Source: Acidimicrobiia bacterium
Lineage (GTDB): Bacteria; Actinomycetota; Acidimicrobiia; Spongiisociales; ZC4RG35
DNA length: 64,000 nucleotides
Assembly: GCA_965215185.1 (NCBI GenBank)
Contig: OZ244034.1
Coordinates: 1,536,001-1,600,000 of the forward strand
Direction of reading: 5' to 3'
The translations under genes were made by a program, and so were the position numbers. Of the stretch, positions 49,413 through 51,575 are shown one piece after another. Below the pieces are notes generated by a model. That model was given only the letters and a program-made list of their open reading frames with translations. It had not been told where the DNA came from and searched no databases. Positions within the stretch are counted from its first letter, which is position 1. Every line of letters starts with the position of its first letter.

Positions 49413-49648
49413 TGGCCGACAGCCGTTGTCAGGGTGGGCGCCGACCGGATGTCGAAGCTCGCGGCTCAACCCTTCCCCAGCGGCCGTTCCGCCACCCGCA
49501 ACTGTCCTGCCAACCGGTGTCGGTTATCTCGGAGAGCCAACTTGAAGCTATCCACGGAGCCTCACTGGAAGTTCTGCGAGATGGAGGCATCGACATGTTA
49601 CATCCTAAAGCCCGGTCCCCCCTCGACCACGCGCCGTTAACACAATGA
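49412..49648 (+). pseudogene. N-terminal remnant of an MttB-superfamily (trimethylamine methyltransferase-like) gene
   Basis: QRPFRHP..QPVSVISESQLEAIHGASLEVLRDGGIDMLHPKAR; GTG overlaps the hutU stop and TGA overlaps the def ATG. Confidence 0.65.
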
Positions 49649-50214
49649 CTGTCCGCCGAATTCTCTCTATCGGCCACCCCATATTGCGGACAAAGACGAC
49701 GCCGGTCCCGCGTGCGGACATCTCCAGCTCGCGTATCCAGGGCCTCATCGACGACCTCATCGACACCATGCGCCACGCCAACGGGGCAGGCATAGCGGCC
49801 AACCAGATAGGAGAAACCGTCCGGATCCTCACCATCGAGGTCAACGACAACCCTCGCTACCCCTACAAGCCCTCTGTGCCCTTGACAGTGGCCATCAATC
49901 CGCAGCTCGAGATCCTGGATGACGAGAAAGTGATCATCAACGAGGGATGTCTGTCGGTGCCGTTGAGAGGCGAGCTTGTCCGCTCGGTCAACCTGCGGGT
50001 CCGCTACACCGATCGAGCGGGCATCGACCACGACCGGGTCGTGCGAGGGCTCACCGCCGGCACCTGGCAGCACGAGTGCGACCACCTCGACGGCATCCTG
50101 GTGGTCGATCGGATCGACCCCACAACGCTCAGTACATGGGAGCAGTTCAAGGTACACCACCACGACGCCTTCGTCGAGCGCATCACTCGCTTCGTCGCCG
50201 AGATCGGATCGTGA
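49645..50214 (+). CDS. def: Peptide deformylase-family protein
   Basis: IGHPILR, GAGIAANQIG, INP, EGCLSV, QHECDHLDG. Confidence 0.93.
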   Translation: MTVRRILSIGHPILRTKTTPVPRADISSSRIQGLIDDLIDTMRHANGAGIAANQIGETVRILTIEVNDNPRYPYKPSVPLTVAINPQLEILDDEKVIINEGCLSVPLRGELVRSVNLRVRYTDRAGIDHDRVVRGLTAGTWQHECDHLDGILVVDRIDPTTLSTWEQFKVHHHDAFVERITRFVAEIGS

Positions 50215-51575
50215 CCAGATACTGGTGTGAGCTGGCCTGGCTGGGTGGTCCCAGAACCACACAGGGAGTCGTGATCGAAGTCAAGAACGGTCGCATCAGC
50301 GCTATCACATCCGACCAAGTTGCTCCTCCTGCGGGAGCTACACCGCTGCGAGGGTTGACGCTACCGGCGCTGGCCAACGCACACAGCCATGCGTTTCACC
50401 GGGTTCTACGGGGCCGCACTCAGGGTGAGCGGGGCACATTCTGGACCTGGCGCGACCTTATGTACAGGGTCGCGGCTGGCCTCGATCCCGACAACTATTA
50501 CCGACTTGCCCGGGCAACCTTCGCCGAGATGGCTATGGCGGGCATCGGTGTGGTGGGCGAGTTCCACTATGTCCACCACCGTCCCGGCGGGGGTGCCTAC
50601 GACGATCCCAACGCGATGGGGGTCTCTCTGGCGGCAGCAGCCAAGGAGGCCGGTATCCGCCTGACCCTCCTCGACACCTTGTACCTCCACGGTGGTTTCG
50701 CCTCCGACGCGGCATCCGGCTACGCACCGCTGCGACCGGAACAAGCCCGCTTCTCTGATGGCTCTTCCGAGGAATGGGCGGATCGGATGGACGACTTGGC
50801 CGCCACGATCTGCGGTCCGAATACCGCGGTAGGCGCGGCGGTGCACTCGGTGCGCGCTGTGGATCCGACGTCGATTGGGATCGCGGCGCGTTGGGCTGCC
50901 GAAAACCACGCGCCCCTCCACGTCCACGTCTCCGAGCAGCCGGCCGAGAACCGGCGGTGCCTCGAGGCTCATGGCCGAACCCCGATCGCGGTGATAGCCG
51001 GCACGGGGGGTCTCGGTCCCGACACCACGCTGGTCCACGCAACGCACGCCTCCAAAGAAGACGTCTCCCTCGTCGGCGAGGTTGGAGCCAACTGCTGTCT
51101 CTGCCCAACAACCGAGCGCGACCTGGCCGACGGCATCGGCCCCAGCGAAGCGCTCGCTGCTGCCGGCGCCCGCCTCTGCGTGGGCTCGGACTCCCACGCC
51201 ATCATCGACCTCTTCGAGGAGACTCGGACCGTCGAGTTGGGCCAGCGAGTGACCAAACTCGAACGGGGGGTGCACTCCACCGAAACCCTGGCCTTGATGG
51301 CCACCGCCAACGGCTACCGGTCGCTGGGGTGGAGGGAGGGAGGCGCTCTCACACCGGGCTCGCTGGCCGACTTCACCACCATAAGTCTCGACTCGACGCG
51401 CCTCGCCGGCACCGACGCCGCCAATGCACTCGCTGCGGCGATCTTCGCTGCCTCAAGCGCGGATGTACATCATCTGGTGGTCGGCGGAAGGCCCATTGTC
51501 GTCGGCGGGACCCATGTCTCGATCGATGTCGGATCCGAACTCGACTCCATCATCCCCAAGGTGGTGACCTCATGA
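50211..51575 (+). CDS. hutF: Formimidoylglutamate deiminase
   Basis: [65 protein letters not shown] overlap with def. Confidence 0.94.

Follow-up and report, generated by a model that had tools for sequence, protein, structure and literature searches.

Here we analyze a histidine utilization (hut) gene cluster in a 64,000-nucleotide stretch of an Acidimicrobiia bacterium genome (assembly GCA_965215185.1, contig OZ244034.1, positions 1,536,001 to 1,600,000; hereafter the window), in which a gene for a paralog of peptide deformylase, here called DefP, lies immediately ahead of hutF. An earlier reading of this DNA (the original prediction) had proposed that this paralog takes the place of HutG, the enzyme that removes the formyl group from N-formylglutamate. 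The four hut enzymes encoded in the window (hutH, hutU, hutF and hutI) all score above NCBI equivalog cut-offs (Table 1); hutF does so on a second model as well (TIGR02022, 444.3 bits against a cut-off of 413.05, with an alignment starting at residue 1), and hutU stays under the cut-offs of the thiourocanate hydratase models in the profile search. The gene order hutU-(mttB remnant)-def-hutF-hutI was read correctly in the original prediction, down to the coordinates and the GTGA overlap, as was the divergence of iclR and hutH, both on the minus strand, from hutU on the plus strand. The IclR-family gene overlaps hutH from the upstream side, and most related loci hold an IclR-like gene at the equivalent place. 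On the other strand, the DefP stop codon overlaps the GTG start of hutF (GTGA at 50211-50214) and the hutF stop codon overlaps the ATG start of hutI (ATGA at 51572-51575), which suggests that both pairs may be translationally coupled. Contigs from metatranscriptome libraries, 95-99% alike, cover portions of hutU and hutF, and one 226-base contig falls within DefP (49895-50120); we did not take them as proof of transcription, as none spans two genes and carry-over of DNA is possible.

Table 1. Features of the hut cluster, with positions in the window and the match supporting each assignment
Feature	Position	Strand	Support
hutH, histidine ammonia-lyase	45336-46862	-	PF00221, 612 bits; TIGR01225, 655 bits (cut-off 539)
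IclR-family regulator	46859-47785	-	PF01614 and PF09339; start codon uncertain
hutU, urocanate hydratase	47721-49412	+	TIGR01228, 891.6 bits (cut-off 375)
MttB-family methyltransferase remnant, first 71 codons	49412-49624	+	tblastn to the intact MttB of related locus L023
DefP, 189-aa paralog with predicted peptide deformylase fold	49645-50214	+	PF01327, 137.1 bits
hutF, formimidoylglutamate deiminase	50211-51575	+	NF006681, 577.6 bits (cut-off 362)
hutI, imidazolonepropionase	51572-52750	+	TIGR01224, 348.8 bits (cut-off 298.15)

DefP is a member of the peptide deformylase family PF01327, whose cut-off is 22.8 bits, and in the profile search it matched this family alone, with no match to FGase, PF00491 or M20. 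As it stands outside the FGase family, it could at most be a functional analogue of HutG. The three catalytic motifs are present as GAGIAANQ, EGCLS and QHECDH, and positions G49, A51, A52, Q54, E100-S104, Q142, H143, E144 and H147 are invariant across 22 aligned sequences, in agreement with the earlier description of a peptide deformylase with intact motifs. We take these motifs, defined as G-x-G-x-A-A-x-Q, E-G-C-L-S and H-E-x-x-H, to provide the metal ligands, the catalytic Glu and the oxyanion Gln; motif 1 of peptide deformylases is quoted in the excerpted text of PMC3101196. An AlphaFold2 model of DefP (pLDDT 94.8, pTM 0.91) has as its best Foldseek match the structure 1SV2 (TM 0.87/0.95, rmsd 1.1 Å, 42% identity), and we regard the predicted peptide deformylase fold as certain.

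The source genome, a single contig of 3.12 Mb that is 95% complete, has two deformylase-family genes, DefP and a housekeeping def. The latter (164 aa, at C1:706275) is directly followed by fmt (PF00551 and PF02911), and def directly before fmt is the usual housekeeping arrangement. DefP carries neither of the marks by which a functional housekeeping Def is recognized, an fmt partner or the position of sole def in the cell: it lies in a hut operon, and it is the other def that precedes fmt. The separate housekeeping copy anticipated by the original prediction thus exists in this genome, and a further def was found in all five of the other DefP genomes that were checked. Searches of the whole 3.12 Mb gave no match to FGase-family HutG (PF05013), to arginase-family formiminoglutamase (PF00491) or to glutamate formiminotransferase (FTCD_N), and the best match to the hydantase-type M20 model TIGR01879 reached 24.7 bits against a cut-off of 204. 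The claim that the cluster lacks a hutG extends, for the families searched, to the entire genome, which holds no HutG candidate within the hut cluster or anywhere else. Because hutF is present, the genome makes N-formylglutamate, and DefP is, judging from its sequence, the sole recognizable candidate enzyme in it for hydrolysis of this compound.

The association of DefP with hutF is conserved well beyond the window. The nearest relatives are Acidimicrobiia metagenome-assembled genomes, several of them from sponge-symbiont lineages. Among the 80 best loci from species-representative genomes, which are kin of one another, all have hutF after DefP on the same strand (80/80); hutU lies upstream in 79 and hutI downstream in 77, the misses falling at contig ends. 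In an evenly drawn sample of 201 Acidimicrobiia genomes (DefP at E ≤1e-40, hutF at E ≤1e-60), DefP was detected in 23 genomes, which represent 18 of 103 genera, and 27 genomes have hutF. All but one of the DefP genomes (22/23) have hutF, in every case on the same contig and strand and less than 3 kb away. Inspection of 11 DefP loci revealed five gene orders, namely hutH-hutU-DefP-hutF-hutI, hutU-hutF-DefP-hutI, hutU-hutF-hutI-DefP-hutH, hutH-hutF-hutI-hutU-DefP and a bare hutF-DefP pair, with the link between DefP and hutF kept throughout; because this linkage survives shuffling, it is better evidence of shared function than frozen synteny. A sample of 401 genomes from across the Actinomycetota added five DefP hits outside the Acidimicrobiia, four of them within hutH-hutU-DefP-hutF-hutI clusters. 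Conservation of the def-hutF linkage, which the original prediction had named as a point on which it could fail, is therefore observed among close kin, across the class and outside it.

Fusion proteins join the same two enzymes. Among 67 longer relatives of DefP compared by domain layout, we found 14 DefP-HutF and two HutF-DefP fusions, with both domains covered and an ordinary amino-acid composition in all 16. Several represent clusters of many members (51, 27, 12, 10 and 8), and one 659-aa fusion sequence occurs on 13 contigs from three sources. The C-terminal half of one fusion, P0157, scores 377-390 bits on hutF models, and the identity between DefP and the fusion domains is 44-46%. Three of the fusions belong to a eukaryote protein collection, and for one of these the source name indicates a marine protist transcriptome; another fusion is encoded on a 91-kb metagenome contig (L108:6001-7998) as a single 665-codon frame with both Pfam domains. 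Two enzymes fused in both orders are classical evidence for action in one pathway. Long open frames are scarce on the L108 contig, its G+C is 47-56%, and it looks eukaryotic.

Other composite proteins were set aside. About 19 apparent HutU-DefP fusions are mostly singletons in which the HutU match ends early and the unaligned stretch is about as long as the missing end of HutU; we read these as frameshifted gene calls that run across adjacent genes. The same appears to hold for six further candidates rich in Arg, Ala, Gly and Pro (P0132, P0144, P0158, P0315, P0340 and P0345). Four singletons of 385-447 aa (P0302, P0305, P0306 and P0312) have a PhyH-type dioxygenase domain (PF05721) before a full DefP domain of 62-64% identity, and are either real fusions or merged gene calls.

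Two sequence features set DefP apart from other members of its family. The loop motif RYPYKP occurs in all but one of the hut-linked proteins (90/91) and in 17/17 fusion domains, and the motif [G/A/C]-T-x-QHE in 91/91 and 17/17, respectively; both are absent from all seven non-DefP peptide deformylase copies of the same genomes. The two features co-occur: the 82 cluster representatives that show both regions divide into 23 with both features, three with the loop only, none with the Thr only and 56 with neither. Aligned by motif, the small residue of DefP (Gly, Ala or Cys, followed by the invariant Thr) corresponds to Ile130 of Arabidopsis AtPDF1B, which the excerpted text of PMC3101196 places in the hydrophobic S1' pocket receiving the methionine side chain. 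From this replacement in the pocket we infer that the specificity of DefP may be altered.

The signature differs in part from the one first proposed, which had pointed to an unusual NPRYPYKP loop and to the Trp of TWQHE. In the loop, Tyr-Lys proved family-specific, but Arg-Tyr-Pro is common to Leptospira-type peptide deformylases (RYPGTP). The Trp had to be abandoned as a feature: the position varies between W, F, Y, V, L, M and A, with Trp confined to close relatives, and what is conserved near QHE is the preceding small residue together with the Thr. The second residue of motif 1 (Ala or Ser in DefP) was likewise discarded as a signature, 17 of the 56 non-signature relatives also having Ala there. 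In a tree of 104 sequences (quick search, SH-aLRT support), all 43 signature-bearing rows, whether hut-linked, fused or of unknown context, fall within one clade of 47 (SH-aLRT 94), and the housekeeping copies lie outside it.

We also asked where other HutG candidates occur. The FGase family PF05013 was found in 13 of the 201 Acidimicrobiia genomes, five of them DefP genomes and eight without hutF, with every match away from hut genes. Against the HutG equivalog model TIGR02017 (cut-off 278.75 bits), no gene of those five DefP genomes exceeded the cut-off (best 46.4), the five phylum-level DefP genomes gave no matches, and no genome passed among 50 of the 80 behind the related loci. The statement that no canonical hutG lies in the same genomes is borne out in this sense, both for the source genome and for these 50, five and five DefP genomes. 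Hydantase-type M20 genes are present in 35 of the 201 genomes; one family has them in 21/21 genomes, only seven of which have hutF. None was found inside the loci of the 80 and five DefP genomes. Five of the 27 hutF genomes lack DefP, and in one of these, G047, the gene 36 bases ahead of hutF is a hydantase-type M20 gene, with hutU and hutI coming after hutF (L096:6340-8813), a layout that corresponds to the Streptomyces-type arrangement with M20 beside hutF. Within one class, either gene therefore fills the slot beside hutF. Used as a query, the G047 M20 protein matched none of 80, 15 and five loci except its own. DefP and the alternatives are thus mutually exclusive at the level of the locus, and to this extent the proposed anti-correlation with hutG and M20 stands; at the level of whole families the exclusion is not strict, as some DefP genomes also carry weak FGase matches or hydantase genes away from the hut cluster.

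We consider DefP likely to be a non-orthologous N-formylglutamate deformylase of the hut pathway. The central proposal of the original prediction, a HutG with the fold of peptide deformylase, is in this way supported by comparative genomics, through the linkage, the housekeeping copy, the absence of HutG, the replacement in the slot beside hutF and the fusions. HutH, HutU and HutI would convert histidine to N-formimino-L-glutamate, HutF would deaminate this to N-formyl-L-glutamate, and DefP would hydrolyze the formyl-amide bond of the latter to give L-glutamate and formate (EC 3.5.1.68), a reaction that otherwise falls to the unrelated FGase-type HutG. DefP would use the Cys/His/His-bound metal, the catalytic Glu and the oxyanion Gln of peptide deformylase, with a metal-bound water attacking the formyl carbon. 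The side chain of glutamate is about the size of that of methionine but ends in a carboxylate. The methionine pocket may have been rebuilt for glutamate by exchange of a hydrophobic residue for Gly, Ala or Cys and by the invariant Thr, and the invariant Tyr-Lys of the enlarged CD loop could pair with a carboxylate of formyl-glutamate; Thr and the loop Lys, along with the Tyr, would be the obvious partners for the carboxylates. Both the substrate and these roles of the signature residues are what we infer. For the family as a whole, it is also rather probable that the signature clade represents an unrecognized and structurally unrelated class of N-formylglutamate deformylase, which would have arisen from peptide deformylase through retuning of the methionine pocket and would serve many Acidimicrobiia, some other Actinomycetota and, as a bifunctional protein fused to HutF, some protists.

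Several observations weigh against this assignment. DefP keeps the full set of catalytic motifs of a true peptide deformylase, passes the NCBI peptide-deformylase cut-offs, if barely (NF001159, 130.5 bits against 125; TIGR00079, 107.9 against 103.95), and is about as similar to the peptide deformylase deposited from Leptospira interrogans (128 bits; 42%) as to the fusion domains. Other candidates are found in some genomes that have DefP: five of the 23 in the class sample have a PF05013 match and 13 of the 50 examined with TIGR02017 have weak matches of 28-72 bits, both of which are possibly divergent deformylases (the latter away from the hut cluster where this can be judged), and nine of the 23 have a hydantase-type M20 gene unlinked to hut genes. 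Four of the 27 hutF genomes have neither DefP nor FGase nor hydantase, so that other solutions or decaying pathways exist. These four include one hutF interrupted by an internal stop and one split hutU; the neighbors of hutF in these genomes (tRNA-editing, methyltransferase, MDMPI-like, PQ-loop, Amidohydro_2 and molybdopterin enzymes) were considered as deformylases, and none is convincing. In a metagenome scan with the fusion P0157, 78 of 80 HutF loci lack DefP and two encode the fusion, which makes DefP a minority solution among metagenome HutF loci; we did not use the scan as evidence on DefP itself, 78 plain hutF loci being uninformative about it. One genome, G094 (96% complete, 160 contigs), has hutH-hutU-DefP-hutI without hutF, its best hutF-like match reaching 113 bits. 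In another, G408, a signature-bearing DefP (L216:3400-3981) has no hut gene within 11 kb, and the sole hutF-like match is partial and on another contig. Finally, the evidence comes mostly from one class, in which kin are not independent.

The two exceptional genomes bear on the main rival, a different substrate within the hut pathway: DefP could cleave N-formimino-L-glutamate to glutamate and formamide, or act as a broad N-formyl-amino-acid deformylase. Formimino and formyl groups are, in general chemical terms, of similar size, and both the G094 cluster without detectable hutF and the G408 gene away from any hut gene would fit it. We nevertheless find it doubtful, since hutF is kept within 3 kb in 22 of the 23 DefP genomes, since the fusions join DefP specifically to HutF, in either order, and since HutF would be redundant if DefP handled formiminoglutamate. 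In G094, either hutF is unassembled, which its 160 contigs allow, or the lineage treats formiminoglutamate differently. That DefP takes formiminoglutamate directly as well, making HutF dispensable as in G094, strikes us as a long shot. In the G094 locus (L097:7476-12685), hutI is followed about 2 kb downstream by a gene whose 458-aa product is an amidohydrolase that carries a ClpX-type zinc finger and shares 35% identity with HutI; the neighbors of DefP in G408 are genes for a PLP-dependent enzyme, an aconitase-like protein and a transketolase-like protein.

DefP might instead be an ordinary second peptide deformylase (EC 3.5.1.88) that acts on nascent proteins and happens to share a transcript with the hut genes, perhaps so that protein maturation is adjusted when the cell grows on histidine. 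Many bacteria have two or three def genes, and the fully intact motifs and fold, the scores over the NCBIfam peptide-deformylase cut-offs and the deposition of the nearest solved relative as a peptide deformylase would all be expected of such an enzyme. This alternative is unlikely: the linkage to hutF survives five gene orders, fusion to HutF at either end would be hard to reconcile with a role at the ribosome exit, the methionine-pocket residue has undergone family-specific changes, and a def-fmt pair is already present, as is another def in the five other genomes checked. Least probable of all is that an unrecognized enzyme elsewhere, another M20 protein or a weak FGase relative, performs the deformylation and DefP is an accessory that, for instance, salvages another formylated compound, for although the source genome has eight other M20-family genes and some DefP genomes have weak FGase-family matches, none of these M20 or FGase genes is hut-linked, the source genome has no FGase match at all and the fusions would be left unexplained.

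Peptide deformylase, which is treated as an antibiotic target, is regarded as having one function, in protein maturation. If DefP is indeed an N-formylglutamate deformylase, its clade would act on a small metabolite and give a clear example of an enzyme recruited to another task and of a pathway step taken over by a non-orthologous protein. The missing last step of histidine catabolism would thereby be supplied in a large group of marine and sponge-associated Actinomycetota, most of them uncultured, and in some protists, in which the bifunctional fusion would turn formiminoglutamate into glutamate. The Tyr-Lys loop and the pair formed by a small residue and Thr would then constitute a readable specificity code, by which hundreds of annotations as "peptide deformylase" could be corrected; removal of this systematic mis-annotation would improve metabolic reconstructions. 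Our literature search turned up no paper that ties the deformylase family to histidine utilization.

The 233 bases between hutU and DefP contain the remnant of a gene for an MttB-family methyltransferase, and the label "mttB remnant" given in the original prediction is justified: window positions 49412-49624 match the start of the intact MttB found at the equivalent place in a related locus, L023 (tblastn, 55% identity, E 5e-15). The L023 protein has 513 aa (PF06253, 638.6 bits) and its gene lies between hutU and DefP. Intact MttB occurs in 12 of the 80 related loci and the same remnant in two; the window and its two nearest relatives retain just the first 49-71 MttB codons. All 12 loci with intact MttB (L023:3772-5998 and 11 more) have, beside it and likewise between hutU and DefP, a conserved 259-aa gene without a Pfam match. 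As a speculation, a quaternary-amine methyltransferase in a hut operon might supply a methylated histidine derivative to the pathway. At the other end of the cluster, a gene for a PLP-dependent enzyme (PF00291) lies just past hutH, at 44189-45172.

Among known systems, the HutG of Pseudomonas (EC 3.5.1.68; PF05013, TIGR02017) shares with DefP the proposed reaction, the place after HutF in the five-step pathway and membership in a hut operon, but its fold and family are unrelated. The arginase-type HutG converts formimino-glutamate to glutamate and formamide, which is the reaction that the first of the rival explanations would assign to DefP. The M20 hydantase-like "alternative HutG" (TIGR01879 / PF01546) is encoded beside hutF where a genome lacks FGase, G047 being one such case in the sampled class, and again belongs to an unrelated family. 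Table 3 of PMC3223725, as excerpted, lists this M20 prediction as invalidated, the Streptomyces avermitilis protein having no detected deformylase activity; on that account the M20 assignment of the deformylation step falls there, and DefP would bear on this old gap in Streptomyces, where the candidate for the step is reported in the same source to be without deformylase activity.

Closer in sequence are the peptide deformylases themselves, among them LiPDF and its relatives with an enlarged CD loop. The housekeeping Def of the same genome shares with DefP the PF01327 family, the catalytic motifs and 35% identity. It lacks the eight-residue loop insert that DefP has after motif 1, has GRV before QHE where DefP has AGT, differs at the C-terminus, which in DefP is longer and conserved, and falls in a separate clade; DefP also has Arg-Gly after EGCLSVP, unlike the def copies of the same genomes. 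The Leptospira interrogans enzyme LiPDF (1SV2, 1Y6H and 1SZZ; phmmer 128.5 bits) has the same fold and the same three motifs as DefP, and shares with it the position of the enlarged loop and the Arg-Tyr-Pro with which this loop starts; the excerpted text of PMC3101196 describes the CD loop of the Leptospira enzyme as enlarged and mobile. LiPDF reads RYPGTP and AIVYQHE in the segments that are RYPYKP and AGTWQHE in DefP, and DefP has a longer conserved C-terminal segment (LSTW...F.ERI). Unlike LiPDF, DefP is found in hut operons rather than with fmt and, in some organisms, is fused to HutF.

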